Shown piece after piece: positions 27,533 through 53,511 of a stretch of 64,000 nucleotides of DNA. The notes below the pieces were generated by a model. It searched no databases. It was not told where the DNA came from and worked only from the letters and a program-made list of their open reading frames with translations. The stretch comes from a virus (Duplodnaviria > Heunggongvirae > Uroviricota > Caudoviricetes). The first letter of the stretch is position 1. Each line of letters opens with the position of its first letter. The translations under genes and the position numbers were made by a program. Where the stretch lies: positions 1 to 64,000 of IMG/VR virus record IMGVR_UViG_3300043447_000408; one strand, written 5' to 3'.

Positions 27533-27533
27533 T

Positions 27534-28781
27534 ATGAAACCATTTTTATTATTTAGAGGACCTGTAAAAACAAGAAGTGGATATGGTGCACATTCAAGAG
27601 ATTTGTTGCAAGCATTATATGAAATGGATTTGTTTGAGATTAAGATAGATAGTTGTATGTGGGGGTCAACTCCGATGACTGCGTTAGAAAAAGATAATCA
27701 GTTTCATATGTGGATTGAATCTAACATAATTAACCCTGCCGGTGTTACCTCTGATTTTTATGTTCAAGTAACTGTACCTAATGAATTTGAAAGGAGAGGT
27801 AAGTTTAATGTTGGTATAACTGCAGGAATCGAAACTACAGTTGCACCTAAAGAGTGGATTGATGGTTGTAATAGAATGGATTTAGTTATAACGACATCGA
27901 AGTTCTCAAAAGAAGTGTTGTTATCAACTGTATACAATGAGAATGAAAACAACACAGGAAAATTAATTAAACAACATAAGATACAAAAACCGATAGAAGT
28001 TCTATTTGAAGGTGTTGATGTTTCTACATTCAATAATGAATATAATGGTATTGATTTGGATATCAAAGAAGATTTTGCGTACTTGTTTGTTGGTCATTGG
28101 TTAAAGGGTTCACTTGGTCAAGATAGAAAGGATGTGGGAATGATGATTAAATGTTTTATGGAATCATTCAAAGATATTGAAGATAAACCTGCACTTATAC
28201 TTAAGACTTCTTCGGCAACATTCTCAATTAAAGAACGTGAGAATATGAGAAGAAAGATTGAAGAGTTAACAAAAGGATATGATAATCCTCCATCCGTTTA
28301 TCTATTGTTTGGTGAATTAACTAATCAAGAAATGAATGAATTGTATAATCATCCTAAGATTAAATCGATGGTATCAATCACAAAGGGTGAAGGTTTTGGT
28401 AGACCTCTATTAGAATTTTCAATGACAGGAAAGCCAATCATAGCGTCTAACTGGTCAGGTCATAAAGATTTCTTACCAATGGATAAAGCGATTATGATTG
28501 GTGGTTCATTAACTGATGTACACGAAAGTGCTGCTGATAGTTTTATACTAAGAGGGTCTAAATGGTTTACCGCAAACTATAATGAGTTCGCAGAAGTGTT
28601 AAGATTAGTTAAAAATGATTATGACAAATTCAAAGAAAAATCTGAAACACTAAGAGAAGAAAATAAAGAAAAGTTCTCAATGGAAAAAATGAAAGATGTG
28701 TTTATGAATTTGATTAAACCATATACCGTTCAACCTAAAGAACATAATTTGGTTTTACCAAAACTTACAAAAATTAAGTAA
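27534..28781 (+). CDS. glycosyltransferase, GT-B fold (GT4/group 1)
   Basis: TKGEGFGRPLLEFSMTGKPIIASNWSG. Confidence 0.7.
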   Translation: MKPFLLFRGPVKTRSGYGAHSRDLLQALYEMDLFEIKIDSCMWGSTPMTALEKDNQFHMWIESNIINPAGVTSDFYVQVTVPNEFERRGKFNVGITAGIETTVAPKEWIDGCNRMDLVITTSKFSKEVLLSTVYNENENNTGKLIKQHKIQKPIEVLFEGVDVSTFNNEYNGIDLDIKEDFAYLFVGHWLKGSLGQDRKDVGMMIKCFMESFKDIEDKPALILKTSSATFSIKERENMRRKIEELTKGYDNPPSVYLLFGELTNQEMNELYNHPKIKSMVSITKGEGFGRPLLEFSMTGKPIIASNWSGHKDFLPMDKAIMIGGSLTDVHESAADSFILRGSKWFTANYNEFAEVLRLVKNDYDKFKEKSETLREENKEKFSMEKMKDVFMNLIKPYTVQPKEHNLVLPKLTKIK

Positions 28782-29044
28782 TGTCGTTTAAATTTTTAAG
28801 GGATAATAATAGTTTATTTTCAGATTTAGAACCGACACAAATTTTAACATTAAGTCGAGCAGCGTACTATCCTGAAAATGTTGAGTTTTGTTTTCAATTT
28901 GGTGATAATGAACCTACAGTGTTTGCCACGGGTCCTAATGAATGTACCATTCGTTTATCACCGAGTCCCAATGGTAATGTAACATTTACAAGTAATGAAG
29001 GTTCAACATTTAAATTATTTGCAAGGGAGATTCAAAATGGTTAG
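28781..29044 (+). CDS. hypothetical protein
   Basis: 87-aa ORF, ATGA coupling. Confidence 0.4.
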   Translation: MSFKFLRDNNSLFSDLEPTQILTLSRAAYYPENVEFCFQFGDNEPTVFATGPNECTIRLSPSPNGNVTFTSNEGSTFKLFAREIQNG

Positions 29045-29255
29045 TGAATTTAAATTTTTTCGAGGTATTCCTAAAAAGGCAAGAGTGTTACGTGTAGATT
29101 GGAGACCAGAATTAGTGGATGATGGTGTCAATTATACTGATATTGTATCAGAATTATCGAGAGCACTTTCTGAAACAATTTCTCGTGAAATTGATAACGA
29201 CATTGTGAATCAACTAACAAGAAGAATAAACGGAGGATTTAATCAAAGAGCATAA
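29037..29255 (+). CDS. hypothetical protein
   Basis: start chosen at MVSEFKF (ATGGTTAG overlap) rather than upstream Met of track ORF. Confidence 0.4.
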   Translation: MVSEFKFFRGIPKKARVLRVDWRPELVDDGVNYTDIVSELSRALSETISREIDNDIVNQLTRRINGGFNQRA

Positions 29256-29258
29256 AAT

Positions 29259-29879
29259 ATGATATTAAGTTACGCAATTACAGTTTGTAATGAATTAGAC
29301 GAAATCAAAAGATTGTTACCTTTCCTGATTGAGAAAAAAGGAATCAATGATGAAGTGGTAATTCTTTTTGATGAGAAAAATGGTTCTCCTGAAGTACTTG
29401 AATATTTGTTAAATTTTAATAAATTACCGAATGTACAGACTTGGAGAGGATTAGATTTTGGAAATAACTTTGCAGATTGGAAGAACAAATTATCTGACTA
29501 TTGTAAAGGTGATTACATATTCCAATTGGATGCTGATGAGTTGATTGGTGAAATGTTTATGTTAAACATTAAACCGATACTCGAAACTAATCCTGAGGTT
29601 GATTTATATTATCTATCAAGAATAAACATAGTTGATGGGATAACTGATGAACACATAAGGAAGTGGGGTTGGAGTGTAAACCAAAAGGGTTGGATAAACT
29701 TTCCTGATAAACAGGGTAGAATATTCAGGAAGAATTTAAAATGGTTTGGTAATGTTCACGAAAGAATTATGGGTGCCGAAACAATTACCTCGTTACCTGA
29801 TAGTGAAGATTTTTGTATAATCCATCATAAAAAAATTGAAAGGCAAGAAAAACAAAATAACTTTTACATAACATTATAA
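29259..29879 (+). CDS. glycosyltransferase family 2-like
   Basis: N-terminal ILSYAITVCNE, DAD motif in FQLDADELI. Confidence 0.65.
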   Translation: MILSYAITVCNELDEIKRLLPFLIEKKGINDEVVILFDEKNGSPEVLEYLLNFNKLPNVQTWRGLDFGNNFADWKNKLSDYCKGDYIFQLDADELIGEMFMLNIKPILETNPEVDLYYLSRINIVDGITDEHIRKWGWSVNQKGWINFPDKQGRIFRKNLKWFGNVHERIMGAETITSLPDSEDFCIIHHKKIERQEKQNNFYITL

Positions 29880-29880
29880 A

Positions 29881-30879
29881 ATGAAGATATTAATAACAGG
29901 AGTTGCAGGATTATTAGGGTCAAGATTAGCAGACTATATTGCTGAGAATCATCCAGATGTACACATAGTCGGTATGGATGATTTGAGTGGTGGTTACAAA
30001 GAAAATGTAAATCCAAAGGTTGAGTTTTGGCAAATGAATTTGGTTGAACATCCAATTGAAAATTGTTTCGAGGTTCATAAGTTTGATTACGTTTATCACT
30101 TTGCAGCATACGCAGCAGAAGGGTTATCACCATTCATTCGAACTTACAACTATCAAAACAATTTAGTTGCAACATCGAGAATCATAACACAATGTATCAA
30201 ACACGATGTTAAACGTTTAGTGTTTACATCAACGTTAGCGGTGTATGGTCACCAAGACGGTAATATGTTTGATGAGGTTCAAGTACCTAAACCTATTGAC
30301 CCATATGGTGTTGCTAAGTATGGTTGTGAAATGGATATTCAAATTGCTGGTGAACAACACGGATTAGATTGGTGTATCATTCGTCCTCATAATGTATTTG
30401 GAGTTAAACAAAACATATGGGACAAGTATAGAAACGTATTGGGTATTTGGATGTATCAACATATGATTGGTGAACCGATGACAATCTTTGGTGATGGTAC
30501 ACAAACAAGAGCATTTAGTTATATTGATGATAGTCTTGGACCATTATGGAAAGCGTCTCAAGATATTAGAGCAAGTAAACAAATTATAAATCTTGGTGGT
30601 ATCAAAGAATATTCAATCAATGAAGCTAACGAAATATTAAGAGAAGTTGTTGGTGGTGGTTCTGTTCAATATTATGAACAAAGACACGAAGTTAAACATT
30701 CAATACCTACTTGGCAAAAATCGATAGACCTATTAGATTTTGAGTTTAAAACGGATTTAAAAGAGGGACTAACAAAGATGTGGGATTGGGCAAAACAACA
30801 ACCTGTAAGAGAAAGATTTGTTTGGCCGTTCTATGAGTTAGATAAAGGAATTTATTCATTTTGGAAAAATAAAAAATAA
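29881..30879 (+). CDS. NAD-dependent sugar epimerase/dehydratase (SDR)
   Basis: Rossmann MKILITGVAGLLGS, catalytic YGVAKYGCE (YxxxK). Confidence 0.8.
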   Translation: MKILITGVAGLLGSRLADYIAENHPDVHIVGMDDLSGGYKENVNPKVEFWQMNLVEHPIENCFEVHKFDYVYHFAAYAAEGLSPFIRTYNYQNNLVATSRIITQCIKHDVKRLVFTSTLAVYGHQDGNMFDEVQVPKPIDPYGVAKYGCEMDIQIAGEQHGLDWCIIRPHNVFGVKQNIWDKYRNVLGIWMYQHMIGEPMTIFGDGTQTRAFSYIDDSLGPLWKASQDIRASKQIINLGGIKEYSINEANEILREVVGGGSVQYYEQRHEVKHSIPTWQKSIDLLDFEFKTDLKEGLTKMWDWAKQQPVRERFVWPFYELDKGIYSFWKNKK

Positions 30880-30882
30880 TAT

Positions 30883-31506
30883 ATGATAAGTGTAATAATG
30901 CCGACGATGTTCGTGCCTGATGGTGTTGTTGAACTAGTTAAAGAAGTTACTTCACATCCTTTAGTTAGTGAATTGATTTTGATTGATAACACAAATGATG
31001 ATGAGATTCACATAAAAGAAGAGATACCAAAATTAGTTTACATTAAAGAAGGTAGAAACACATATGTGAATCCCGCTTGGAATAAAGGTTATTCAATTGC
31101 AAAAGAAGATAAGTTAATGTTTCTTAATGATGACATAACAACTGACTGGTCTTTACTTGATAAAATTCACGATAGCATAACTGAAGATAAGGGTATCATT
31201 GGATTAGGTGATGGGTGTTGGACAGAACCTAAGGGTAGATTTTTATTAACTCCAATTTATCAATTGATTGGTGGGTTTGCTTGTTTATTCTTCATACATA
31301 AAAATTCATATCGACCTATACCTGAAGAATTAAAAGTATGGTATGGTGATAATTTTTTAATTCATAAAGGACCTAAACAAGCATTTCAAATGTTAAACTG
31401 GAAAATGGGTGGACACATATCAAAAACGGTATTAAAAGCTGAGTTTAGTCCTGTTATTAGAGAAGACGGAATTGCTTGGTCGAATGTAATAAGTAAAATG
31501 AGATGA
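30883..31506 (+). CDS. glycosyltransferase-like (GT-A)
   Basis: N-terminal ISVIMPT; LNDDIT. Confidence 0.45.
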   Translation: MISVIMPTMFVPDGVVELVKEVTSHPLVSELILIDNTNDDEIHIKEEIPKLVYIKEGRNTYVNPAWNKGYSIAKEDKLMFLNDDITTDWSLLDKIHDSITEDKGIIGLGDGCWTEPKGRFLLTPIYQLIGGFACLFFIHKNSYRPIPEELKVWYGDNFLIHKGPKQAFQMLNWKMGGHISKTVLKAEFSPVIREDGIAWSNVISKMR

Positions 31507-32615
31507 GTATATCGTTAGTAATGGCGGTCTACAATAAATTAGACCTAACAAAAAAATGTTATGAGAGGGTTCGTCTGTTATATCCCGAAGCACCATTTGT
31601 AATTAGTAGTGGTGGTTCAAGTGATGGAACGAAAGAGTGGTTAGAGTCATTAAATGATGATAACTTATCATTCATACACGATGATGATAGAATAACATTC
31701 TCGGACACATATAACGCAGGAATCAAGTTGGTTGATACTGATAAATTAGTGTTGATTCACAACGATATGATTTTAGGTGAATACTTTCTTGAAAACTTAG
31801 AATTGTTATTAGATGAGAATCCGAATACTCTTATCTCTTACACCACAATAGAACCCCCAATATTCAAAGGTCACTTAAGACCAGGTAAAGTATTGTTGAA
31901 TTTAGGTTCAAGTTTTGATGACTTCGATTACTTCCATTTTAACAGTTATGTAAATCAATGGAAGGATAGTAAAAACTTATATGATGGTGCGGTATTCTTT
32001 ATGAGTGGAACTAAAAAGATGTTTGATGATGTGGGTGGATTCGATGGATTTAGTTTCGTTCCGTGTTTCTGTGAAGATGACGATTTCTTGGTTCGTGCGA
32101 AACTAAAAGGTTACGAACTAAAAACTTGTGATTCCGCAATTGTTTATCATTTTGTTTCGCAGACTTCAAGATTCAGTGATGATATGAGAGTTGATAGAAG
32201 AATTATCGAAGTATCATCCAATAGAAACTTTGTTAGAAAGTGGGGTATACCATTCTCAGCATTCAATGAACTAAGATATTGGGAAGAGAAGAACTTTAAG
32301 TATAAAACCTTCACAATGGGTTTAACCACCAACAATAGAAATCGTTTTATGGAGATTGAACCATTCTTCGATAAAATCGAAATAGGGACGATTCCTGAGG
32401 ACTATATTGAAAATGAACAGAAGAATACCCGTTATGATTTAAGGTCGAAATTTACGTTCACAGATAACGTAGATGTGATGATTTATGAAACTGCACCATT
32501 TGATGATATGGATATTAGAACCTTACATAAATTGAGGTTATCGATACCCTACTATGAGGTGGGTGAATATCAAATTGGTAATATGATGATAGAAATAAGA
32601 AAGGAGGTTATTTAA
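31503..32615 (+). CDS. glycosyltransferase family 2
   Basis: SISLVMAVYNKLDLTKKCYERV, CEDDDF. Confidence 0.7.
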   Translation: MSISLVMAVYNKLDLTKKCYERVRLLYPEAPFVISSGGSSDGTKEWLESLNDDNLSFIHDDDRITFSDTYNAGIKLVDTDKLVLIHNDMILGEYFLENLELLLDENPNTLISYTTIEPPIFKGHLRPGKVLLNLGSSFDDFDYFHFNSYVNQWKDSKNLYDGAVFFMSGTKKMFDDVGGFDGFSFVPCFCEDDDFLVRAKLKGYELKTCDSAIVYHFVSQTSRFSDDMRVDRRIIEVSSNRNFVRKWGIPFSAFNELRYWEEKNFKYKTFTMGLTTNNRNRFMEIEPFFDKIEIGTIPEDYIENEQKNTRYDLRSKFTFTDNVDVMIYETAPFDDMDIRTLHKLRLSIPYYEVGEYQIGNMMIEIRKEVI

Positions 32616-32630
32616 CCTCCTTATTTTTTA
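32591..32630. terminator. bidirectional hairpin terminator between convergent genes
   Basis: stem aggaggtt/aacctcct, loop attt, flanked by A-run upstream and T-run downstream; spans both stop codons. Confidence 0.5.
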
Positions 32631-33075
32631 TTAGTCTGAATAAAACTATATAATTGTCTTTTGTTTTTCCTGCATTTACTAAATCCTCTTTTGTAATTTC
32701 GGGGTATTCTACCTCAATCTCTTTATCTAATAATTGGGTGTATTCCTTTTCAAATTCTAAGTAATCGGGATTTAATTTTTTTGAGATAATGACACCATTT
32801 TCGTCTTTTTCGAAAATATGCATATTAACAACAATTCTACTATTATTGTCCATCTTACCATATTTGGTTACTAATTCATCTCTCAATCCATCTACTTTTT
32901 TTCTTTCAGTTTCTAAAAATTTAGTAGTTTCAGTCAAATCGTATTTTAAGATGATTGATAATTTTTGATTTATAAATCCTTCATAATATTTTTCACCAGT
33001 CTCAGGATTAGTAAATCCGTTAATTTCACTTTCTAATTGAAGTACGTCTTTTAATTTTAATGATATCTTTTCCAT
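32608..33075 (-). CDS. hypothetical protein
   Basis: 155-aa ORF. Confidence 0.5.
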   Translation of the reverse strand: MEKISLKLKDVLQLESEINGFTNPETGEKYYEGFINQKLSIILKYDLTETTKFLETERKKVDGLRDELVTKYGKMDNNSRIVVNMHIFEKDENGVIISKKLNPDYLEFEKEYTQLLDKEIEVEYPEITKEDLVNAGKTKDNYIVLFRLIKNKEVK

Positions 33076-33112
33076 AAATTAATTATACTAAAAATTTTTA
33101 TAAATGTCAATG

Positions 33113-33484
33113 TTATTCTTCGTCCTTAGGAAACTGAGTTTTAACATCACTGATAGATTGAAACCATTGTCCTGAAGATGATATCGAACCATTTTCATTT
33201 ATTTCGTGCCATAACATATCCAATTGTTCTCCTAAATCAGGATAACTCATCTTTCTTAATGCACCGTATGGTGGGACATATGAAGGGTCAGGGTACGGCA
33301 TATATTCAATATTATCTTCAACCCAGTCTTCTTCAGGTTCTGCATCAAATAATATAGTATGGATATCACCATTTGGTGCTCTATATCTTTTATATTGGTC
33401 AATGACCTCTGTCCAAGTTTCTTGTGGTGTTTCACCATCAAGTAATAAATGAAACACTCCTAAATTATCAATAAATCTTCTCAT
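33113..33484 (-). CDS. hypothetical acidic protein
   Basis: 123-aa ORF downstream of fiber-associated paralogs. Confidence 0.5.
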   Translation of the reverse strand: MRRFIDNLGVFHLLLDGETPQETWTEVIDQYKRYRAPNGDIHTILFDAEPEEDWVEDNIEYMPYPDPSYVPPYGALRKMSYPDLGEQLDMLWHEINENGSISSSGQWFQSISDVKTQFPKDEE

Positions 33485-33496: not shown

Positions 33497-33985
33497 TTAT
33501 TGTACCGGTCCTCCATAATAGTTACCACTATCACTTGTTTGAACGGCTGCGATTATACTTACATTTGATTGGGTTACATCACTTCTTGTTGCGTATGCAT
33601 TCAATGTAAATCCGTTATAATAATTACTACCATTTGCATATGCTCTCAATACAATATATCCATCAGACGCAATATAAACTCCGTGTGCAGACATACCAGG
33701 GTATTGATTTCTCAAACCTATATTGTAAAGGAAACCATTAGTATACGGCATACCTGCGGTACTAATATGAAAACCCCAAGAACATCTAATAGGTGCAGCA
33801 ACTCCGTAATTATAACCAACCGCTTCGAACATCCACATATTATATGTTGTTGCACCAATTAAATTAGTCTTCATATGGATATACAATGGACTACCCGCAG
33901 TGGTGTTAAAAGTGTAGATGTACTTTTGTTGAAAGTACCAACTACTTACTGAACCTATTCTAAATGGTGGTGTTAATATTGCCAT
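33497..33985 (-). CDS. tail-fiber-associated Tyr/Gly-rich protein, paralog 3
   Basis: shares EAVGYNYG, PIRC.W.F, SAHGVY..SDGY.V.RA, FTLNAY, AVQTS..GNYY with two upstream genes. Confidence 0.6.
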   Translation of the reverse strand: MAILTPPFRIGSVSSWYFQQKYIYTFNTTAGSPLYIHMKTNLIGATTYNMWMFEAVGYNYGVAAPIRCSWGFHISTAGMPYTNGFLYNIGLRNQYPGMSAHGVYIASDGYIVLRAYANGSNYYNGFTLNAYATRSDVTQSNVSIIAAVQTSDSGNYYGGPVQ

Positions 33986-33988
33986 AGT

Positions 33989-34426
33989 TTAATAATATGT
34001 TGCCGCTGATGTTTGAACCGCAGATACTACGGACGTTATGGTTCCATAACCATTTCCTGCGGTATTATACGCATTTAACGTAAACCCACAATAATATAAA
34101 CTACTTGCATATGCTACAATCACAATTTTGTTGTCCGCAGCAACATAGTGACTATGTGCTGTTAATCCGTCATATGCTGAGTTTTGAACATTACCAAAAA
34201 AGTAACTATAACAATAAAAATTCCAAGCACATCTAATGGGTGCTGAAGTTCCGTAATTATAACCAACAGCCTCAATCATTATCATTGCATATGACTGATG
34301 GGTAATGTTCAATTTCATATGATAATATTGACCACCTCCCGATGACAAATTGGCAACATTATATATTCCAAGTTGTTCTAAGTAACCATTTTCAGGATAT
34401 ATTCCAGTTCCTTGTAAATTAGCCAT
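33989..34426 (-). CDS. tail-fiber-associated Tyr/Gly-rich protein, paralog 2
   Basis: same conserved blocks as 33497-33985 and 34426-34854. Confidence 0.6.
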   Translation of the reverse strand: MANLQGTGIYPENGYLEQLGIYNVANLSSGGGQYYHMKLNITHQSYAMIMIEAVGYNYGTSAPIRCAWNFYCYSYFFGNVQNSAYDGLTAHSHYVAADNKIVIVAYASSLYYCGFTLNAYNTAGNGYGTITSVVSAVQTSAATYY

Positions 34427-34854
34427 TAGTAGTAGTTTCCTGCATTATCTGTTTGAACGCTAGCTGTTACACTAACTACAAAATTATATCCTGTTGGATT
34501 TAAACAATACGCATTAAGAATCCATCCACTATAGTACGATGCACAGTTTGCTCTTATAACTACATATCCATCTGATGATGTGTAAACTCCGTGTGCACTT
34601 AGACCACCGTAAACATTTGATGTCCCGATTTGTATTGTTGAATTAGAACCAGCGTAAGCGTAAAAACTCCAAGCGGCTCTAATTGCTTGATTTGCACCAT
34701 ACGCATAACCAACAGCTTCAATAGTGCACATAATATTGTTCATATTGATGTTTGTTTTATAGTGAAAATAATTGTTTCCACCATAATACCTATCTCTAAA
34801 AAATCCCAACTGAACGCCAGGTGCTGGTCTCGTATTTGCTAAAAAATTAGCCAT
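34426..34854 (-). CDS. tail-fiber-associated Tyr/Gly-rich protein, paralog 1
   Basis: same conserved blocks; ATGA-type overlaps with neighbours. Confidence 0.6.
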   Translation of the reverse strand: MANFLANTRPAPGVQLGFFRDRYYGGNNYFHYKTNINMNNIMCTIEAVGYAYGANQAIRAAWSFYAYAGSNSTIQIGTSNVYGGLSAHGVYTSSDGYVVIRANCASYYSGWILNAYCLNPTGYNFVVSVTASVQTDNAGNYY

Positions 34855-37800
34855 TATTCTTTAATTCGTTTATTTCTTTTTTCAAATCTTTTATCGCCTC
34901 GATTAACACCGCTGTAATTCTACCATAAGATACGGAATCTACTTTACCTTCTGAATCGTAAAGTACCACATCAGGTAAAATTTCGGCAATTTCTTCTGCA
35001 ATAACACCCATTTCTTTAACGTTATTCTCTTTTTTAACGTAAGTAACACCTCTTAATTGTAAAACTTTATCCAAACCATAACTAATGGTTTCGATATCTT
35101 TCTTATATCTGATTGACGAGTTTTCCGTAATTGTTCCTGAAGTTGTTAAATTACCGTTTGAACCTAAAGTAATCACCGCGGAGCCGCCTCTATTTGCCGA
35201 AAAAATACGAACACCAGCACTAAATCTCATAGAACAATATGCGTCGTTTAAATCAACAATATCACCATCATCAGCCAAAATAATACCTCCACCGGTTGCA
35301 TTATTTGTTGAGATGGTTATACTACCTTCAACGGATAAACCATTCGATGTTGTTGATGTCGACACTAGACCTGAACCAATAGTCATTCCTCCGTGAACGT
35401 GTAATTTTTTACCACTCACATTTGAGCCTCCTCCACCAATCGCAAACGTTTGTGCTCCTCCGTGGTACCAAATATAGTCAGGTGAACTATTGGTATCGTC
35501 AAATTCCATACCCGCCCACGTATCGGTACTTCTTAACGAGATTTGCCAATCACTCGCACCTGACGTGAAAATTCCAGTACCATTAACAGTTAATGTTCCA
35601 TTTGAGGTTAGTCCTGCAAATGTTGGGGCGTTACTTGTTCCAACGCTTTGATTAATTGTATACGATGTAATGTTAGATGCAGTTCCTGTCGTGTTTTGAT
35701 TCCACGTAGGTATATTTCCTGCGTGATATATCGTATTTCCTCTCCAATAAGGTGCAGTTGCGTTTACTTGAAAATAAATTTCATTTATAGTACCGTTTGT
35801 TCTATAGAATCTAAAGTCTCCACTATGTTGAACTAAGGATGTTACGTCTCCTGCTGTGATGTCTCCCGCGGCGTTATTAGGGTTACCTCGGAGAATCATT
35901 CCGTGATAATTGTCAGTAAATGCTATTCTACCATAACCACTATTGTTAAATCTAAGGTCACCAGTTAATGTTCCACCCGCTAATGGTAATGCATCAGTAA
36001 TCCCATACCCAGTTAGAGTTGTTGGTTTTGATGAGACGTTTGCAAATGAAATACCTGTTATGTAACCGTTTGGATTAGTTGCGTTATATGGTGTATATCC
36101 TAATGCCGTAGTTACTGCACTTGAATTAATTCCTGTTATATAACCATTTGGATTAGTTGCGTTATATGGTGTATAACCTAAAGCAGTTGTAACAGCACTT
36201 GAGTTAATTCCTGTTATATAACCAGGTCCGTTTGTTAATTGATTAAGGTTAGTCAAGTTACCTGAATCCCAAATTGTATATCTTGTTGCTTTATTACCAC
36301 GATATATGACACCTGCAGGATTTAAATATATGTTGGCGGTAGATTCTATGGCTAAGTTATCTTCCACATTACCTACACCATCATTAGATGTACCTATTCT
36401 AAGTACTGACCTTTCAGTACCGCCAGCATCACTATAAGTTGTACTGTTATTATCAAATGTTATATAACCATAATCGTCACCGCCTGTATTAGAACCACCA
36501 AAAGATTCTTCCCTACCAAAATATAATGCATTACCTGCATCTACACCTAAATCAGAACTCATTCTTAACTTACCCGAAAGAGTAATTTGTGTGGACGAAC
36601 TTGCCCCACGTGCGGTTACCGACGCCAGTGTATCAGTTTCAGTGTATGAACTAATATATCCATTTGGATTGGTTGCGTTATATGGTGTGTATCCTAAACC
36701 ATTGGTAACTTGTGTACTTGTTAATGTAATTTGTGAACTACCAGACACTAGACCACTTGGTATACTACTAATACTTAAGAAAGTAATTTGTGAACTACCA
36801 GACACTAATGCCGGTTTATCGGTTATACCATTAAATGAAATTTGAGCGGAACCTGACACAACAGAAATTCCGTTAAAGAAACTACCCGAATGTATTGTTG
36901 TTCCTGCTAATACCTGTGAACTTCCTGATACTAAACCACTCGGTATACTACTAATACTTAAGAAAGTAATTTGTGACGAACCTGATACCACACCTGATGG
37001 TAATTGTGCGGAACCCGACCAAACTCCACTTCCGTTTAATACTTGTGAAGAACCTGAAACCAACGTAGGTTTATCAGTGATTCCGTTAAAAGATATTTGA
37101 CCAGAACCTGACACGACAGATATTCCATTAAAGAATGCACCTGAATGTATTGTTGTCCCTGCAAGTACTTGAGAAGAACCTGATACAGTTCCTGATGGTA
37201 AATTTGCTATAACCTGAGCGGAACCACTAACAACTCCTGACGGTAATTGAGCAGAACCCGACCAAACACCTGTGGATGTTAATATTGTTGCCGCAGTTAT
37301 TGAGCCACCTAATGATGTACTTGTACCTGCAATTGATATTGAACTATTTGTAAGTGAAGAGTTACCAATATTTGATAATGTGTTAGAACCTCCACTAATT
37401 GTTTTGTTTGTTAATGCTTGTGATGCTGTCTTTAACACAACTTCATCCTCAGAACCTAATGGACCGGCAACCCACTTATCGTTTGTTGAGTCCCAAAGGA
37501 ATGAACCCGAAGTAAGTGTTGGTGATGTCGCATCTCTAACAACAATACCTGCATTAGTTGCCCCTGTACCATTTAATTGAATAATGTTATCACCAATATT
37601 AACAGTTGTCGAATCAACTTGAGTTGTGGAACCTTGTACGGTTAAATTACCTTTAACGGTAACGTTTGCACCACTTAAACCAAATGCAGTATTAAATGAT
37701 GTGGTAAATGAATTCAACGCAGTAATTGCGGTTGTGTTACTACTTGTGTAAGAATTTAAACTACTTGATGCAGTTTCTAACGCGGTTAATCTACCCGAAG

Positions 37801-38677
37801 CACTACTTGTAAAACTATTCAAACTACTTGTTGCAGTATGAATAGCATTTATGTTTGTAGTGTTTGAACTTGTATATGAATTTAAACTACTTGTTGCAGT
37901 ATGAATCGAATTAATATTGGTAGTGTTACTACTCGTGTAAGAATTCAATGCATTGATTGCGGTGTTGTTCGAACCTGTATATGTGTTTAACGCCGCAATT
38001 GAACCGGTTACCCCCTCAATAGAAGTTAATCTACCATCAGCACTTGAAGAGAATGAATTCAAACTTGCGGTTGCGGTGTGAATTGCATTTATATTTGTAG
38101 TGTTTGAACTTGTATAGGTGTTCAAACTTCCTGTTGATGTTTGTAACGTACCAATAATAGTATTGTTACTTCCTGTATATGTATTCAAACTCGCAGTTGA
38201 GGTATGAATAGCATTAATATTGGTTGTATTAGATGATGTATAGGTGTTTATCGAACCTGTAGATGTCTCCAATGCGACTAACCTATCCGAAGCACTTGAT
38301 GTGAATGTGTTTAAACTTGCTGTTGAGGTTTGTAATGTACCGATAACAGTATTATTACTTCCTGTATATGTGTTTAACGAGGATATTGAACCAGTAACTC
38401 CTTCAATTGAATTTAATCTACCGTGAGCACTTGATGTGAATGTGTTTAAACTTGCTGTTGAGGTTTCTATTGCAGTTAGTCTACCGTTGGTAGTTCCTGA
38501 GTAAGCGTAAAAACTTGAGGTTAGGGTATATCTCGGAGCAAAAGATGCGGTATCTGCACTTGTGGTGTTACCACTAATGGTCGCATTAATTATTCCAAGT
38601 ACCGTTAAGTTTCCCTGAATCTCCGCTGAAGAGGATACCGACAGGGAACCCGATATGTGTGCGTCAAATATATTCAT
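34847..38677 (-). CDS. tail fiber protein with C-terminal intramolecular chaperone (peptidase S74-like) domain
   Basis: 1276 aa; about 20-aa Ser/Thr/Asn repeats; GYTPYNATNPNGYI x3; C-terminal SSIRYKKDIETISYGLDKVLQLRGVTYVKK...coiled coil typical of S74 autoproteolytic chaperone domains. Confidence 0.85.
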   Translation of the reverse strand: MNIFDAHISGSLSVSSSAEIQGNLTVLGIINATISGNTTSADTASFAPRYTLTSSFYAYSGTTNGRLTAIETSTASLNTFTSSAHGRLNSIEGVTGSISSLNTYTGSNNTVIGTLQTSTASLNTFTSSASDRLVALETSTGSINTYTSSNTTNINAIHTSTASLNTYTGSNNTIIGTLQTSTGSLNTYTSSNTTNINAIHTATASLNSFSSSADGRLTSIEGVTGSIAALNTYTGSNNTAINALNSYTSSNTTNINSIHTATSSLNSYTSSNTTNINAIHTATSSLNSFTSSASGRLTALETASSSLNSYTSSNTTAITALNSFTTSFNTAFGLSGANVTVKGNLTVQGSTTQVDSTTVNIGDNIIQLNGTGATNAGIVVRDATSPTLTSGSFLWDSTNDKWVAGPLGSEDEVVLKTASQALTNKTISGGSNTLSNIGNSSLTNSSISIAGTSTSLGGSITAATILTSTGVWSGSAQLPSGVVSGSAQVIANLPSGTVSGSSQVLAGTTIHSGAFFNGISVVSGSGQISFNGITDKPTLVSGSSQVLNGSGVWSGSAQLPSGVVSGSSQITFLSISSIPSGLVSGSSQVLAGTTIHSGSFFNGISVVSGSAQISFNGITDKPALVSGSSQITFLSISSIPSGLVSGSSQITLTSTQVTNGLGYTPYNATNPNGYISSYTETDTLASVTARGASSSTQITLSGKLRMSSDLGVDAGNALYFGREESFGGSNTGGDDYGYITFDNNSTTYSDAGGTERSVLRIGTSNDGVGNVEDNLAIESTANIYLNPAGVIYRGNKATRYTIWDSGNLTNLNQLTNGPGYITGINSSAVTTALGYTPYNATNPNGYITGINSSAVTTALGYTPYNATNPNGYITGISFANVSSKPTTLTGYGITDALPLAGGTLTGDLRFNNSGYGRIAFTDNYHGMILRGNPNNAAGDITAGDVTSLVQHSGDFRFYRTNGTINEIYFQVNATAPYWRGNTIYHAGNIPTWNQNTTGTASNITSYTINQSVGTSNAPTFAGLTSNGTLTVNGTGIFTSGASDWQISLRSTDTWAGMEFDDTNSSPDYIWYHGGAQTFAIGGGGSNVSGKKLHVHGGMTIGSGLVSTSTTSNGLSVEGSITISTNNATGGGIILADDGDIVDLNDAYCSMRFSAGVRIFSANRGGSAVITLGSNGNLTTSGTITENSSIRYKKDIETISYGLDKVLQLRGVTYVKKENNVKEMGVIAEEIAEILPDVVLYDSEGKVDSVSYGRITAVLIEAIKDLKKEINELKNNG
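37690..38500 (-). repeat. intragenic tandem repeats encoding SLNTYTGSNNT-type units
   Basis: near-identical nucleotide blocks recur, e.g. cacttgatgtgaatgtgtttaaacttgctgttgaggttt twice near 38290 and 38420. Confidence 0.6.
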
Positions 38678-41447: not shown

Positions 41448-41945
41448 TTAAATTAATTTCTTGATTGTTTTATCTCTATCACCTTTTCTTAATCTCTCCT
41501 CACTGTTGAAATCAAAAATATCTTCATAATACGTAATTGGGACATTAAGTTTGGTGGATAAGTCACTTAACTCCTTATTCCATTTTATAATGTCGTTGTG
41601 GCACAGTTCAAAAATATCTGTAGGTATCTCTTCATAAACATAAGGTTTGTTTGAGTCATAATTTTTAATCTTTGAGAAGTATGTTTGGTAAGCGTGTGAT
41701 TCTGTACACTCTTTAACGTTTCTTCTCGTTAATAATATCACCTCATCAAAGTTTTTTGATAGTTGTATATTATCGTTGTGATGACATATTATTGTTTTAA
41801 CCACAACATTCTTTTCACTATTATATTCAACTCTACCAGTACCATCAAACGGTTCAAACAAAGGTTTTAAATTTTTCTCTTTTGCTAATTTGTGTAACAA
41901 TGAAGTAGAACCTGTTCTTGGTAGGGAGATTATTAATACACTCAT
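41448..41945 (-). CDS. NodH/Stf0-like sulfotransferase
   Basis: 5'-PSB-like loop IISLPRTGSTSLL at N-terminus; LLTRRN..ES 3'-PB-like; short (165 aa). Confidence 0.5.
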   Translation of the reverse strand: MSVLIISLPRTGSTSLLHKLAKEKNLKPLFEPFDGTGRVEYNSEKNVVVKTIICHHNDNIQLSKNFDEVILLTRRNVKECTESHAYQTYFSKIKNYDSNKPYVYEEIPTDIFELCHNDIIKWNKELSDLSTKLNVPITYYEDIFDFNSEERLRKGDRDKTIKKLI

Positions 41946-42508
41946 AACAATGTTTTATTACTTTTAACTCTCGGATAATCAAAATCAGTTTCGGTCATCC
42001 ACACATTTAACGCATATCTTATTCCCTTAGTTACCGGTAAAACTCCGTGATATGTTTCCGAACCATTGAATGAAATACTATCACCCAATTTCAAATCACA
42101 TAATGTTAAACCGTCCAATTTCTCAAAGTTGTATGGTGGATTCTCATCTTGGGTTAACACAAATTGACCACCTTCAAAATCGTCAGAAAGAACGATAACA
42201 GTCGTCAACTCACTTGACTTGTCTTTATGTAGATTAAGGTACCTACCATCATAGTACGATGTTAAACTTATATTGAAATTTTTTAAATTAAATGTTGAAT
42301 AATCAAACCATAATTTAAACTCTCCATTTTTGTAATTGGTTGTTAATAAATTAATAATTCTTTCTTTAAAATTGGAATCGTACATTCTTCTACAATCCCA
42401 TACTTCGGTTGGTTTATATGAAAAGGGTTCACCGAACTCAAGACAAAAATCAATTATATCTTTAGCGGTTTCTCTATCACAAAAATTATTGTTTATGTTA
42501 TAATTCAT
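41942..42508 (-). CDS. 2OG-Fe(II) oxygenase (prolyl-4-hydroxylase-like)
   Basis: HKD (HxD), distal YHGV His, RYALNVW Arg. Confidence 0.7.
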   Translation of the reverse strand: MNYNINNNFCDRETAKDIIDFCLEFGEPFSYKPTEVWDCRRMYDSNFKERIINLLTTNYKNGEFKLWFDYSTFNLKNFNISLTSYYDGRYLNLHKDKSSELTTVIVLSDDFEGGQFVLTQDENPPYNFEKLDGLTLCDLKLGDSISFNGSETYHGVLPVTKGIRYALNVWMTETDFDYPRVKSNKTLL

Positions 42509-43326: not shown

Positions 43327-43337
43327 AAAACATTATC

Positions 43338-45366: not shown

Positions 45367-46154
45367 ATTAATGTCTTGGTTAATTTTGGTAGGTCGTAAT
45401 AATCATAAATACTGTTGTATTTTTTTATAAAATCATCATCTAAATTCACAACACATTTCATATGTTTACTTGAATTAACCGAATGAAGCTCAAATGGTTT
45501 TTCTAAAATATTTGATACCCATTCCTCTAACTTATCTAATTCATCAAAATCAAACCAAATTATTGTTTGGTCATTATTTGTCCAATTTGATACGGGGGTT
45601 AATAGAATGTCAATCATATTAACTGCATATCCCTTGGTGTTAGATTTAAAATATTCTTCTTCTGATTTTTTAAATTTTGATGTTACTGAGATATCTATTT
45701 TTTCATCAATCAATTTCAAATCCATTAGAAATTCACAAATTTTATTCCATCTTTGTTTTTTAGTTGCAACATCTTCTTTTGTAAAAAAGAATAATTCATC
45801 CAATGATAGTTTGGAGAACTTTTTATAAATCTTACTAAATCCCATCCTTTTTAAATCAAATAAGACGTGTTTATATAATGAATAAAATCTTTCGTGTCTT
45901 TGTCTTTTAACAGCAATAATCGGGTAGTTTCTACCAAATTTAGTCTGTAAATCAATTAAAGATTCGTGTCCGTGATAGATATAATTCATTAAGTCTTTTG
46001 TATCTACCGATTTAAAATCAATGTCTGAATTTGCTAATTCCCACTCACCATTATGTGTCTGTACTTTAACATCATTAACTAAACAAGAATAATGAAATGC
46101 GGTAGACGCACATCTCGGTAAACTCAAATAAAAAAACTTATTTTCAACTAACAT
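45363..46154 (-). CDS. sulfotransferase-like protein
   Basis: N-terminal FYLSLPRCASTAF resembles the PSB loop of the 41448-41945 protein. Confidence 0.4.
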   Translation of the reverse strand: MLVENKFFYLSLPRCASTAFHYSCLVNDVKVQTHNGEWELANSDIDFKSVDTKDLMNYIYHGHESLIDLQTKFGRNYPIIAVKRQRHERFYSLYKHVLFDLKRMGFSKIYKKFSKLSLDELFFFTKEDVATKKQRWNKICEFLMDLKLIDEKIDISVTSKFKKSEEEYFKSNTKGYAVNMIDILLTPVSNWTNNDQTIIWFDFDELDKLEEWVSNILEKPFELHSVNSSKHMKCVVNLDDDFIKKYNSIYDYYDLPKLTKTLI

Positions 46155-46723
46155 TATATTAAGGATTTTTTAATTATTTTGGAGGGCCATACATTTATGG
46201 AGTATCTAACTCCGCTTGTTATTTCTTTTACTGAATGTACGATGTTTGAATCAAAAATGAATACACTACCTTCTTTTTTAGGTACCGAATACTCAGTTTC
46301 GTTTATCATATACTTAACATCTCCATCCTCGTATTGGTCGTTTAATTGAATTATATAAGTTATTGTTGCACCATTTACAATTTCGTGACTATCGGGATGC
46401 CAATCTAAAAAATCACCTTCCCCATATCTGTTAAATGAATAATTGTGTATTCGATTATACGTGATTCCATTATATGGGTTTAATTCATTAGATAAAGTAA
46501 TGATTTTATCGGTTAACTCTTTTAGTATTGGTAAGTCTAATAATCCGTTAGTAAAATATGTTCCCATTCTTTTATTACCACTATACTCAGTATTTTCTGT
46601 TAATACTTTCCCGTTAACCACTAATGATGATTTCATTTGTACTAAATTAGTTGATTCACCTAACTTTATTAAAGACTTGCACTCATCAGGAGTTAAAAAA
46701 TTTTCAATGTACCTCGTAAACAT
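46154..46723 (-). CDS. 2OG-Fe(II) oxygenase (P4H-like)
   Basis: WHPDSHE, HSVKE, RYSINVW. Confidence 0.7.
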   Translation of the reverse strand: MFTRYIENFLTPDECKSLIKLGESTNLVQMKSSLVVNGKVLTENTEYSGNKRMGTYFTNGLLDLPILKELTDKIITLSNELNPYNGITYNRIHNYSFNRYGEGDFLDWHPDSHEIVNGATITYIIQLNDQYEDGDVKYMINETEYSVPKKEGSVFIFDSNIVHSVKEITSGVRYSINVWPSKIIKKSLI

Positions 46724-47377
46724 TTATATCAGAGATTTTTCTTTTTTTATATAATCGAACCCAACATTACCGGCAACCACAATTCTATCTATAGTTGAGT
46801 TAGGTGCATTATTTGGGCTATGTGGCATATCCGCCTCCATAATAATTAAATCATCTTCTTCGGGTCTAATCCAATATTCTTTTTTATTGTTTCCTTTAAA
46901 ATATAAAACTCCGTCTTCACCATTCATAACATCAGGCATTTGAATATAATAAACGTACGTATAATGAGGAATAAATGATTTAATTTCTTTGTTTATGTCT
47001 GTGTGTACGTGATATTTGTCTACCCCTTTCAATTCCTCGTGTTTGAATTGTATTTGAACTGGGTCAGTCGAGCGGACAACGTTAACCCAAGCATCTGTAT
47101 TAATTTTATTATATAAAATATTTTTTTCTTTGTATAAATCTTTACAACGGTCAATTCCAATTTGAATGATTTCATCCATTTTTGTTTTAATATCAATTTC
47201 ACCAGTAAAATTGATATTCTGATTCCATTCTTTTACAAAACCATACCCATCAGTTTTAACATCTGGTTGGGATTCTATAATAGAATTGGCTTCTTTTAAT
47301 AAATCCGTTTTATCAGATAAACGATTTAATTTACCTCTCCAAATATATGTCTCTTCGTCAAAGTATAATTTCTCCAT
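46724..47377 (-). CDS. putative cupin/2OG-Fe(II) oxygenase-like protein
   Basis: HVHTD and distal MPHSP, RIVVAG; weaker match. Confidence 0.4.
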   Translation of the reverse strand: MEKLYFDEETYIWRGKLNRLSDKTDLLKEANSIIESQPDVKTDGYGFVKEWNQNINFTGEIDIKTKMDEIIQIGIDRCKDLYKEKNILYNKINTDAWVNVVRSTDPVQIQFKHEELKGVDKYHVHTDINKEIKSFIPHYTYVYYIQMPDVMNGEDGVLYFKGNNKKEYWIRPEEDDLIIMEADMPHSPNNAPNSTIDRIVVAGNVGFDYIKKEKSLI

Positions 47378-47378: not shown

Positions 47379-48623
47379 CTATATCAATTCTTTTTTAAGT
47401 ACTTTTTTGTTCTTTCTGAAAATGGTTAGATAATTGTTTACAAAAAAAGTAAGTTCGTTTGGTGTAATATCTTCCAATTCAAATGATGATAGTAATTCCA
47501 CATCACTTCTAACTGTGATTGAGTTATTTTTGTCTAATATCTTTTTTAGTTTTGAAGGTATCGGCATTGATGTACAGTCTTTCCAAAACTGCGTGTCATC
47601 TCTCTCACACAAATAATGATATCTTATGAAATTTAAATTCTGTTCGTTTATTTGATAACACCATTTATTATATCTCTCAACATATTGTTCATCGAAGTTT
47701 AAATCAATTAACTTCTTTAACTGCATTATAGTCGACATCAATGATGTCGCTTCTAAAGGTTCAATAAACCCATAAGATAGTCCTATCGATATACTATTCC
47801 CAATCCAACTTCTTTTATGTGTACCAGGATTAAAGTTAAAAACTTTTTGTAAAGTTACTTCGTGACCTAAACGATTCTCAATCTCTTTCTTTGCATCTTC
47901 TACGGTTATATATTTGTCATTGAAAACATAACCGCAACCCCATCTATGTTGTAATGGGATTTTAAACATCCAACCACAATCCATCGACACCATCTCGGTA
48001 TATGTCTTATCATTTAATTGATATTTGTTTTCTTGTGGTAAAAAGAACGCTATTGCCTTATTCATCATCAAGTAATCGGTATACCCAATCCACTCTTCTT
48101 TATGTACACCATCAATAACGATTTTAGCAAATCCACTACAATCAAATACAAAATCTAAATCAATGGTTGTACCATCTTTCATTTTTAATTCTGAAATGAT
48201 ACTATTTTCATTTTTTATCTCACTCACCTCACCGTCAACCCAATTAACTCCTCTACTAATTGCAATTTCTTTAAAGTATTGTGCAACTAATCTTGCATCA
48301 AAATGATAAGCATACGATTTATTAAATTCGCTTGGTCCGTCACCAAAGAAAAGATGCTTTGATAATTCATTATTACCTGTCCAATTATATAAATGTAATC
48401 CACCTTTTACTGTTGATTTAGTTTTCTCAAAGAATTCATTCTGATTAATATCTAATAACACGAGCATCTTACCGAAGTTGGATGTTCCTCCTTCACCAGC
48501 ACCCAATATTCCAATTTTAGAACTCTCTACTAATGTAACACTAACATCCTTCCAAAATTTATTAACCACCAATGAGGTTAACCATCCCGCAGTACCACCG
48601 CCAATTATTACAACTTTTTTCAT
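47379..48623 (-). CDS. flavin-dependent halogenase (tryptophan halogenase family)
   Basis: N-terminal VVIIGGGTAGWLTS; GWMFKIPL resembling the WxWxIP motif (second W is F); AGEGG near N-terminus. Confidence 0.65.
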   Translation of the reverse strand: MKKVVIIGGGTAGWLTSLVVNKFWKDVSVTLVESSKIGILGAGEGGTSNFGKMLVLLDINQNEFFEKTKSTVKGGLHLYNWTGNNELSKHLFFGDGPSEFNKSYAYHFDARLVAQYFKEIAISRGVNWVDGEVSEIKNENSIISELKMKDGTTIDLDFVFDCSGFAKIVIDGVHKEEWIGYTDYLMMNKAIAFFLPQENKYQLNDKTYTEMVSMDCGWMFKIPLQHRWGCGYVFNDKYITVEDAKKEIENRLGHEVTLQKVFNFNPGTHKRSWIGNSISIGLSYGFIEPLEATSLMSTIMQLKKLIDLNFDEQYVERYNKWCYQINEQNLNFIRYHYLCERDDTQFWKDCTSMPIPSKLKKILDKNNSITVRSDVELLSSFELEDITPNELTFFVNNYLTIFRKNKKVLKKELI

Positions 48624-49168
48624 ATTAAATTTTGTTTATTTGGGGTAGTCTTAATTATCGATACCCAATTTACTAATGAATATCTTGTACCCGATTCAAC
48701 CGGTGTGACTCTATGTCTTAAACCCGATTCGAAAACATATAATGTACCTGCTCTTTTTTGTGAGGGTATGTTGTCACCTTTCGAATCTTTTATTTCTAAA
48801 AATCCACCTTCATAATCATCGTTTAAAAGAATGACAGTTGACACGATTCTTTCTTTAAAGGTGGTTGAGTCCTTATCGGTATGCCAACCATAATACTCCC
48901 CGACTTTGTATTCAGTAAATTGAAAAGAGCCGAGACCTGTGACCTCAGCACCATTCAATTTAAAAGATTCTCTTAATATTTCTTTTAATCTAATATTAAC
49001 ATCACCCAAATCATTAATCCAAGATACTGAAGATTTTCTTTCGTTCGGATTTCCGTTCGCAACTCCTGCAGTTTCTAATGTTAATTCTTTGTGACACTTG
49101 TTTAACACATAATGACATTCATCATTTGATAAAAAGTTTTCAAATATGTAGAATTCATTATTTGTCAT
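48620..49168 (-). CDS. 2OG-Fe(II) oxygenase (P4H-like)
   Basis: WHTDKD, HRVTPV, RYSLVNW. Confidence 0.7.
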   Translation of the reverse strand: MTNNEFYIFENFLSNDECHYVLNKCHKELTLETAGVANGNPNERKSSVSWINDLGDVNIRLKEILRESFKLNGAEVTGLGSFQFTEYKVGEYYGWHTDKDSTTFKERIVSTVILLNDDYEGGFLEIKDSKGDNIPSQKRAGTLYVFESGLRHRVTPVESGTRYSLVNWVSIIKTTPNKQNLI

Positions 49169-51760: not shown

Positions 51761-51877
51761 TTAGTGTTTATAAATGAATGGGTCTCTTTTTTTAAGTTCG
51801 GCTAATTTCTTTTTAAATTCTTTTTTCTTTTTCCATTCTACCCATTTGTGGGTTAACCATCCAATAAATGCTTTCAT
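51761..51877 (-). CDS. small basic protein (38 aa), not in ORF track
   Basis: ATG overlaps the TGA of the upstream carbamoyltransferase gene (ATGA); MKAFIGWLTHKWVEWKKKKEF... Confidence 0.3.
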   Translation of the reverse strand: MKAFIGWLTHKWVEWKKKKEFKKKLAELKKRDPFIYKH

Positions 51878-53511
51878 TTGTTTCCGTTTTTATAGATAAT
51901 ATAATCACCAATCACCAATATGTCCATAGCAGTGTCCAAATATGTTAGTATAGCATCTTCTGGTGTTAAAACCATTGTTTTATCTTTAACATTAAAAGAT
52001 GTATTCAATAATATTGGGTAATCAGTTCTCTCTTCAAATTCTTTTAATAGATGATAAATTGGGTTATTTGGTGTGACAGATTGAACTCTAGCACTACCAT
52101 CAACGTGTGTAACCGCAGGTAACTTATCTCTATATTTTTTTAACACATTAACCACTTGATTCATATATGGAATATATTCTTTTGAATCAAAGAACTCACT
52201 TTGACGTTCAAAAATTACCATAGGGGCAAATGGTCTAAACCCTTCTCTTTTTTTAATAACTTTATTAATCCTTTCTTGCATATCGGGTACTGTTGGATTT
52301 GCCAATATTGACCTATTACCCAACGCCCTTGCACCAAATTCTATTTTATCTTGGAACCACCCAACAACTAACCCCATACTTAAATATTGTGCAGTTCTTT
52401 TATATAATCTTTCTTTTGTATGTTTTCTATAAAATATTTTATGTCCGTATTTGTTTAATGTATTTTGAATTTCATTATGACTATAAGAAGGACCTAAAAA
52501 TGGTGTTGGTGAAATTCTCACATTAAGTCCTTTAACTTTTGATAGGTAGTCTAAACAAGAACCAATACAAGAACCTGCGTCAGAAGGTGCCGGTGGAACC
52601 CATACCTTTTTAAAAATTCCGTTTTTAATTATTTTACCATTAGCACATCCATTATATGCACAACCACCCCCAATACAAATGTTATCTGAATAATAAAACA
52701 ATTTCGCATCTTTTATTAATTGAAAAAACAACTCTTCATATCTTTCCTGTACTGATGCTGCTAAGTCTTTGTGGTCATCGGTAAGAGGTGTATTTGGTAA
52801 TCTGTTTTCAATACCTAACAAATCAGCTAATTTGTAATTAAACATTGTGTCATCGGATTTATTCCATATGAAACAATCCATATTACAGGATAATTTATAT
52901 CCATCAAAATTAATTAACTGAGCAACTTTACTTCTAAATCTTTCGGGGTCACCATATGCGGCCAAACCCATTACTTTATACTCACCTTCGTTTGGTTTAA
53001 AACCCAGAAAAGCAGTCATTGCAGAATAATATAACCCTAATGAATCAGGGTATTCGATTGTCTTAATATTATGAACCACTCCATTAATACCTTTACCAAA
53101 TGAAACCGTTGAAGTTTCACCAACACCGTCAACAGATACTATAACCGCCTTATCAAAATTCGATGATAAATACGAATAAGCCATATGTGACATATGGTGT
53201 GAGGTATAGTGTATCTTATCAGATATCTTTCTTAAATTCCACCAAACTTTAATGTTGGTTTTTAGTGAGGTAAAAAAAGATTTCTTTCTTTTGAATCTGA
53301 GTCTTGGGTTTTCATAATAACAAACCGCTTCAATGTCCGATTTTTTTAAATTGAAGTGGTCAAAAATGTATTCTATGGTCTTTTCAGGAAATGAACTATC
53401 GTGTTTGATTCCAGTGAACTTTTCTTCCTCACAAGCAAAGACTAATTCCCCATCTTTAAAAAGACAAGCAGAAGAATCGTGATAATATGCGGATACTCCA
53501 ATAATATACAT
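51874..53511 (-). CDS. carbamoyltransferase (NodU/CmcH family)
   Basis: 545 aa; N-terminal IIGVSAYYHDSSACL signature. Confidence 0.8.
   Translation of the reverse strand: MYIIGVSAYYHDSSACLFKDGELVFACEEEKFTGIKHDSSFPEKTIEYIFDHFNLKKSDIEAVCYYENPRLRFKRKKSFFTSLKTNIKVWWNLRKISDKIHYTSHHMSHMAYSYLSSNFDKAVIVSVDGVGETSTVSFGKGINGVVHNIKTIEYPDSLGLYYSAMTAFLGFKPNEGEYKVMGLAAYGDPERFRSKVAQLINFDGYKLSCNMDCFIWNKSDDTMFNYKLADLLGIENRLPNTPLTDDHKDLAASVQERYEELFFQLIKDAKLFYYSDNICIGGGCAYNGCANGKIIKNGIFKKVWVPPAPSDAGSCIGSCLDYLSKVKGLNVRISPTPFLGPSYSHNEIQNTLNKYGHKIFYRKHTKERLYKRTAQYLSMGLVVGWFQDKIEFGARALGNRSILANPTVPDMQERINKVIKKREGFRPFAPMVIFERQSEFFDSKEYIPYMNQVVNVLKKYRDKLPAVTHVDGSARVQSVTPNNPIYHLLKEFEERTDYPILLNTSFNVKDKTMVLTPEDAILTYLDTAMDILVIGDYIIYKNGNK

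Follow-up and report, generated by a model that had tools for sequence, protein, structure and literature searches.

A conserved set of three knob-domain genes behind an S74 tail fiber in uncultured phages, and the case for a possible heterotrimeric fiber end

To our knowledge, the receptor-binding organs of phages have almost always been described as homotrimers, and heterotrimeric fiber ends are only starting to be reported. The locus considered here lies in a stretch of 64,000 nucleotides (nt) from a virus of the Caudoviricetes (positions 1 to 64,000 of IMG/VR record IMGVR_UViG_3300043447_000408; "the window"), in which three small paralogous genes, p1, p2, and p3 (the trio), follow a tail fiber gene that ends in a Peptidase_S74 (S74) chaperone and precede another small gene, d1. 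The slot directly after a fiber gene is typical of tail-fiber assembly genes (lambda Tfa and T4 gp38). In T2/T6/S16-type phages, the gp38 encoded directly after the distal fiber gene is instead a small Gly/Tyr-rich adhesin that sits noncovalently on the gp37 fiber end; it is the product of a single gene and determines host range, with hypervariable segments set in a polyglycine-II sandwich. The trio products are likewise small, Gly/Tyr rich, and encoded directly after a fiber gene, but they are three paralogs, are 92 to 100% conserved in close relatives, have a predicted ordinary beta-sandwich fold, and match no Pfam or PHROG adhesin family.

A three-gene fiber tip has been described in the virophage DSLV2/Aquatic Virophage 1 lineage, in which three consecutive, co-oriented genes encode small tail-fiber-tip proteins with a PF07484 collar domain and a gp37-tip-like fold; these proteins form position-specific clades, being more alike in the same position than within the same genome, and copurify as a 1:1:1 heterotrimer that binds Synechococcus lipopolysaccharide (J Virol 2025, PMC12724248). 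The window trio shares with DSLV2 the three consecutive, co-oriented genes and their position-specific orthology. It differs in belonging to another family and fold, with neither PF07484 nor the gp37-tip-like fold, and in standing behind an S74 fiber and ahead of d1 in a large myovirus-like genome; the DSLV2 heterotrimer was shown by copurification, whereas the window trio is known from sequence comparison. The paralogous fiber proteins gp131 to gp135 of phiKZ are also encoded together and form a hetero-oligomeric fiber complex (PMC13250141), but this is a hetero-hexamer of large proteins of unrelated sequence with a seven-bladed propeller as the C-terminal domain. As an analogy only, the globular head of C1q (A, B, and C chains) is a heterotrimeric beta-sandwich head made from three tandem paralogous genes, and one fused homologue of the trio (library protein P0255) has a collagen-repeat stalk before the homologous domain. 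The principle of three genes for one heterotrimer is therefore known already from virophages. What is new is an unannotated fiber-end domain family that occurs as an obligate three-gene set behind an S74 fiber, and the locus is a second, unrelated protein family with the signature of exactly three position-orthologous genes.

The initial annotation of the window, made from the sequence without database searches, had described three consecutive open reading frames of 142 to 162 amino acids (aa) with shared sequence blocks and a Tyr/Gly-rich composition, and all of this holds. The frames lie on the minus strand at the coordinates in Table 1. Their products are 43 to 45% identical in pairs over 116 to 136 residues (BLASTP E values of 6e-23 to 8e-29), and a three-way alignment has 41 invariant columns, contains the blocks EAVGY.YG, IR..W.F, AH..Y..D, and LNAY, and places an internal insertion in p3 relative to p1 and p2. 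Tyr (11 to 14%, against 5.3% in the other open reading frames of the window) and Gly (∼10.5%, against 6.2%) are at roughly twice the usual level, Asn is also abundant, and the proteins are almost uncharged (K+R, 2 to 4% against 11.8%; D+E, 2.5 to 3.4% against 13.2%). The three sequences show neither a visible signal peptide nor a membrane segment. The genes are tightly packed: the fiber stop and the p1 ATG overlap by 8 nt (ATGGCTAA), the p1 stop and the p2 start have one base in common (TAATG), and gaps of 3 and 12 nt separate p2 from p3 and p3 from d1. To judge from these start and stop overlaps, the trio is probably translationally coupled to the fiber gene.

The comparative pattern comes from 57 related loci gathered by exact-protein look-ups and from IMG/VR and metagenome contigs. 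All 46 loci whose contigs cover the whole region have exactly three copies, and these 46 amount to 34 distinct triplets. Of the others, L054 is a contig of 1.75× coverage with two short fragments, and each of the rest runs into a contig end. The order is constant, from an S74-ending fiber (310 to 2,483 aa where complete) through the three copies to d1 (76 to 141 aa). Proteins in the same position are 57 to 100% identical across phages (p3 is 100% identical in three related contigs), whereas paralogs within one phage are ∼40% identical. In a neighbor-joining tree, the 25 core triplets separate into one pure clade each for p1, p2, and p3, the nine most divergent loci retain position-specific pairing within each subgroup, and paralogs of the same locus are never each other's nearest neighbors. 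These position-pure clades point to an old triplication. No recent duplication, gain, loss, or replacement of a copy was seen among the 34 distinct triplets, which have diverged to ∼30 to 45% identity, and the triplication appears on this comparison to have persisted without turnover, gene conversion, or loss. One contig of 5,106 bp (L036) has a third-position copy and d1 at its start and an S74 fiber with copies of the first and second positions at its end, which resembles an assembly that was wrapped around or collapsed at a repeat more than a true change of gene order.

Variation in this lineage lies elsewhere. The 1,276-aa fiber of the window matches 12 tail families of PHROGs, the majority with a tail fiber annotation, and its C-terminal region matches PF13884 with an E value of 1.3e-12 (48 bits against a cutoff of 22), which makes it an S74 fiber; by the known behavior of that family, the chaperone is presumably cleaved off. 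In close relatives, p1 to p3 are 92 to 100% identical, like the neighboring genes, while the fibers are 48 to 86% identical and range from 1,129 to 1,612 aa. Sliding identity of the window's fiber against those of five close relatives resolves this difference into segments. The first 450 residues show almost no differences in four of these relatives (54 to 94% identity in the fifth, L023), the shaft is mosaic, and residues 1201 to 1276, in the S74 region, are 86 to 100% identical. Just before the chaperone, a block at residues ∼1022 to 1172 falls to 8 to 18% identity (residues 1051 to 1150) between flanks that are 96 to 100% identical. Its junctions are sharply conserved (...SVGTSNAPTFAG upstream and GN(L/M)T..GT(I/L)TENS downstream), and six near-identical backbones carry three alleles of it. 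A tip that is swapped while the trio stays conserved argues that this ∼150-aa tip, and not the trio, is the host-range cassette, so that, as far as sequence comparison goes, host-range variation would sit in the tip and the trio would form the conserved right flank of the module. Specific contacts with the tip domain cannot be a requirement for the trio, which stays unchanged when the tip is exchanged. The initial annotation had proposed alternative cassettes at a host-range diversification locus and had named copy-number or sequence variation among related phages as a check; copy number, order, and positional orthology of the trio are all fixed, and the comparison speaks against that proposal. 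In translation, the N-terminal third of the fiber (∼37700 to 38500, residues ∼60 to 330) contains Ser/Thr/Asn-rich repeats of the type ...TSTASLNTYTSSNTTNINAIHT..., from which the length differences between relatives may in part derive.

The trio products have no relatives in annotated collections. No match to p1 to p3 was obtained in Pfam at an E value of ≤1, PHROGs returned only noise with E values of >0.01, and NCBIfam gave nothing significant. No Caudo_TAP or other chaperone family was matched in the Pfam, PHROGs, and NCBIfam scans, and the trio accordingly falls outside the tail fiber assembly proteins (Caudo_TAP/Tfa, T4 gp38/gp57A type). Neither megablast with window segments of 6.5 and 25 kb nor tblastn with p3 (E value of ≤0.01) or p1 (E value of ≤10) gave a match among 50,697 deposited phages, and tblastn with the RNA ligase and with a 414-aa neighbor did not place the phage taxonomically, being uninformative or without a match. 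A search of 185,579 species genomes with the pattern of the family found no relatives and hence no clue to the host. The family is widespread in uncultured aquatic phages. A 90%-clustered metagenome protein library holds 332 relatives at an E value of ≤1e-3, which among the matches listed are all unnamed and 109 to 176 aa long. A family profile (A2) describes a domain of ∼130 residues, here called the knob, with membership defined as a significant match over the whole domain; p1, p2, and p3 match it with E values of 3e-53 (p1) to 4e-67. In the stand-alone forms, only 10 to 15 residues precede the domain, with the shared motif MA-N-L-x3-(T/P)-x2-I.

An AlphaFold2 model of p1, built from a 67-sequence alignment, is all beta with nine strands (predicted local distance difference test [pLDDT], 91; predicted template modeling score, 0.86) and supports a beta-sandwich of the lectin, carbohydrate-binding module, or tailspike-domain type as the predicted fold of the trio. 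The beta-rich character claimed earlier is thus borne out by structure prediction, which had been suggested as a check for a lectin or jelly-roll fold. Foldseek against predicted viral structures returned tail proteins among its matches, weakly. Compared at the level of whole chains with trimeric beta-sandwich proteins of phage tailspikes, fibers, and baseplates (WceF [6TGF], Acinetobacter phage Fri1 gp49 [6C72], AM24 [5W5P], APK09 [8OQ0], Kp9 gp42 [7XY1], and Pa193 gp46 [9B45]), the trio has 4 to 14% sequence identity, and a profile search gave no significant match to any PDB sequence; unlike in those proteins, the domain is spread over three separate genes and is not part of one homotrimer chain. 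p1 to p3 each consist of a stand-alone copy of this beta-sandwich knob, a domain without previous annotation.

What such a domain does is indicated by its homologues in longer proteins. The most telling result is that of an exhaustive profile search of 1.84 billion cluster representatives (a 50%-clustered library), which gave 606 matches at an E value of ≤1e-3, a sizeable domain family for which there is no database model, and the position of the domain was read from the best 150. Among these, 87 are stand-alone proteins (≤200 aa), as are the copies in the window, whereas in 55 of the 63 long proteins (201 to 1,497 aa) the knob lies ≤15 residues from the C terminus. One long protein (P0255) combines collagen triple-helix repeats and strong tail-fiber PHROG matches with a knob at its end, and another (P0241) has tail-fiber PHROG matches and, by tblastn, shaft similarity to cyanophage and pelagiphage fibers; the other long knob proteins scanned had no family match. 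The gene for a further homologue (P0216) adjoins genes of T4-type gp13, gp14, and gp15. A position at the C terminus of long proteins, some of them recognizable phage fibers, identifies the domain as an unannotated C-terminal knob, and the long proteins that end in it are presumably trimeric fibers. That the same domain is the covalent C-terminal end of two long proteins with tail-fiber regions lends support to the initial view of the trio as part of a tail-fiber module. Since the knob marks the far end of phage fibers and of some bacterial surface proteins, a model of it would improve tail-fiber annotation in metagenomes.

Some long homologues have other features. P0255 and P0249 have, by eye, signal-peptide-like N termini and bodies with GIGT-type repeats, which suggests that they are bacterial surface proteins, and the knob may be shared by phage fibers and cellular adhesins. 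In P0246 and P0247, the knob is followed by an ALK/LTK-type glycine-rich domain. In another locus (L019, positions 9606 to 11990), a 794-aa protein encoded downstream of the trio and d1 matches the knob profile weakly (E value of 1e-7) and could represent a second copy of the knob, in fused form, within one phage.

The gene d1 follows fused knobs as well as the trio. A d1-like gene stands directly after the knob-ended fibers P0241 and P0210 (E values of 9e-15 and 5e-13), and in one locus (L058) an S74 fiber (832 aa) is followed by a knob-ended fiber (608 aa) and a d1-like gene, so that one long gene occupies the slot of the trio. These arrangements suggest that d1 serves the knob domain, as a candidate assembly helper or adaptor, and that the trio may be the functional counterpart of a presumably homotrimeric knob-ended fiber. 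d1 itself matches only PHROG families of unknown function (best, phrog_1787). A structural model of d1 (pLDDT, 84) combines a small beta domain with three helices at the C terminus, and a structural search with it gave no informative match. In cultured cyanophages and in a pelagiphage, homologues of d1 are encoded downstream of tail-fiber genes and small Gly-rich proteins; the small Gly-rich proteins in the same slot of cyanophages MED4-213 and S-B64 were considered as relatives of the trio and rejected, as they have no profile similarity. The three consecutive fiber genes of L058 (positions 3500 to 10537; 832, 608, and 800 aa) share the N terminus MARYN[ST]... and end in the S74 chaperone, the knob, and another end, respectively, and look like alternative fibers on one attachment module.

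The constant number of three, the fixed order, the positional orthology, the coupled translation, and the homology to presumably trimeric fiber ends make a heterotrimer the most economical reading of the trio. We propose the following. (i) p1 to p3 would be expressed with the S74 fiber and d1 from one tightly packed gene block. (ii) p1, p2, and p3 would contribute one chain each to a 1:1:1 heterotrimeric knob with pseudo-threefold symmetry, a split version of the knob that fused fibers presumably form as a homotrimer, and d1 would help the split knob to assemble or attach. (iii) Through the short conserved N-terminal peptides (MA-N-L-x3-T/P-x2-I), the knob would attach to a conserved component of the tail-fiber apparatus. 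(iv) A conserved glycan on the cell surface would be the ligand of the knob, bound by its low-charge, Tyr/Asn/Gly-rich surface. Of these steps, we infer that the heterotrimer forms, that it is present in the virion, where it docks, and what it binds. We lean modestly towards the overall explanation, in which three anciently diverged, nonredundant knob copies form a heterotrimeric knob with the S74 fiber and d1; on the 1:1:1 stoichiometry itself our judgment is evenly poised.

Several considerations weigh against this explanation. The argument for the heterotrimer is wholly one of comparative genomics. Divergence is correlated among p1, p2, and p3 (Spearman coefficients of 0.87 to 0.91) more closely than with that of the flanking S74 domain (0.79 to 0.84) or d1 (0.60 to 0.70), but tight linkage and a shared fold could explain such covariation, which is not independent and is weak evidence. 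Only ∼10 to 15 residues precede the domain in the stand-alone proteins, and no attachment partner has been identified. No cultured phage carries the family (by tblastn against the deposited phages), and presence in the virion is therefore presumptive. The fiber already has a variable tip of its own, which gives an additional knob no obvious purpose. The invariance of the three copies is striking and testable, but a precedent for the principle was published recently, the phage has not been cultured, and the decisive step is still hypothetical.

Each paralog also contains a complete domain, and the fused homologues end presumably homotrimeric fibers, so three homotrimers are possible. Each copy would then be a separate, alternative or additional receptor-binding tip and the phage would have three specificities, much as in the adhesin cassettes first envisaged; the three fibers of L058, with their common N terminus and different ends, indicate that such phages can carry alternative fiber ends. 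Independent tips of this kind fit poorly with 34 divergent triplets in which no copy has been gained, lost, or replaced and with a trio that stays conserved where the fiber tip is swapped. There is, moreover, no shaft or attachment domain on which three separate knobs could be mounted, and the start and stop codons are coupled; we regard this explanation as doubtful. The initial annotation had also raised a role in fiber assembly. In such a role, the trio and d1 would help the upstream fiber to fold or attach, as chaperones or scaffolds, and would be absent from the mature virion. A place immediately downstream of the fiber gene, and conservation together with the S74 domain while the tip varies, are what such factors would show. 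A chaperone role is nonetheless improbable, and we give it little credence, because the upstream fiber already has an intramolecular chaperone in its S74 region, and because elsewhere the domain is covalently built into long proteins, tail fibers included, as their terminal structural part. A low-charge, Tyr/Asn-rich beta-sandwich is, in addition, typical of exposed fiber ends and not of known Tfa-type chaperones, and no chaperone family was matched. Finally, the window is unusually rich in sugar-modifying genes, and the trio might be lectin-like proteins unrelated to the fiber, binding phage-made or host glycans or acting in superinfection exclusion, and merely located in the fiber operon. 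Three observations make this highly improbable: an S74 fiber and d1 accompany the trio in strict synteny at every locus, the domain is homologous to the C termini of long proteins (tail fibers among them), and no signal peptide or membrane segment can be seen in the sequences.

A more specific form of the heterotrimeric-knob explanation would have a shaftless heterotrimeric knob, with d1 as helper, docked through its three N-terminal peptides on the fiber stub ...GT(I/L)TEN that S74 autoproteolysis would expose. This is speculative, and we think it unlikely in this exact form. If true, it would describe a two-layer tip, with an exchangeable fiber domain and a conserved lectin-like cap, and a second, structurally unrelated invention of the three-genes-one-trimer fiber tip recently shown in virophages. 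For host-range prediction and engineering in this lineage, the ∼150-aa fiber tip would be the variable element, and the trio would be the conserved component to keep intact.

Table 1. Features of the window, with positions counted from its first nucleotide
Feature	Coordinates	Strand	Description
Tail fiber	34847..38677	-	1,276 aa: conserved N-terminal part, mosaic shaft, swappable tip, C-terminal S74 chaperone
Fiber tip cassette	35162..35614	-	∼150 aa (aa ∼1022-1172), just before S74 chaperone
Peptidase_S74 intramolecular chaperone region of fiber	34850..35119	-	PF13884, aa 1187-1239
p1	34426..34854	-	142 aa, first stand-alone knob-domain paralog; position-1 orthologs form their own clade
p2	33989..34426	-	145 aa, second stand-alone paralog; position-2 clade
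p3	33497..33985	-	162 aa, third paralog; position-3 clade
d1	33113..33484	-	123 aa, always after the trio; also after fibers with a fused knob
d2	32608..33075	-	Gene after d1
2OG-Fe(II) oxygenase-like paralogs (three)	41942..42508, 46154..46723, 48620..49168	-	
Possible fourth 2OG-Fe(II) oxygenase-like paralog	46724..47377	-	
Tryptophan-halogenase-like gene	47379..48623	-	
Nol-type carbamoyltransferase	51874..53511	-	

The T4-type late promoter motif TATAAATA occurs at five sites, fewer than expected by chance, and at none near the trio locus. Between d1 and d2, a perfect 12/12 sigma-70 consensus (TTGACA, 17-nt spacer, TATAAT) lies on the minus strand at positions 33082 to 33110, and d2 may therefore be transcribed separately from the fiber block. 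Where the minus-strand fiber block converges with a plus-strand glycosyltransferase block, a palindromic hairpin at positions 32601 to 32622 (AAGGAGGTTATTTAACCTCCTT) is bordered on each side by T-runs and resembles a bidirectional terminator.

The tail-fiber region is flanked by two large plus-strand clusters of sugar-modifying genes (positions 26177 to 32615 and 56587 to 63594), which hold glycosyltransferases, NAD-dependent epimerases, and a dTDP-4-dehydrorhamnose epimerase. On the minus strand, a run of auxiliary genes extends from position 41942 to 53511; its members are listed in Table 1.
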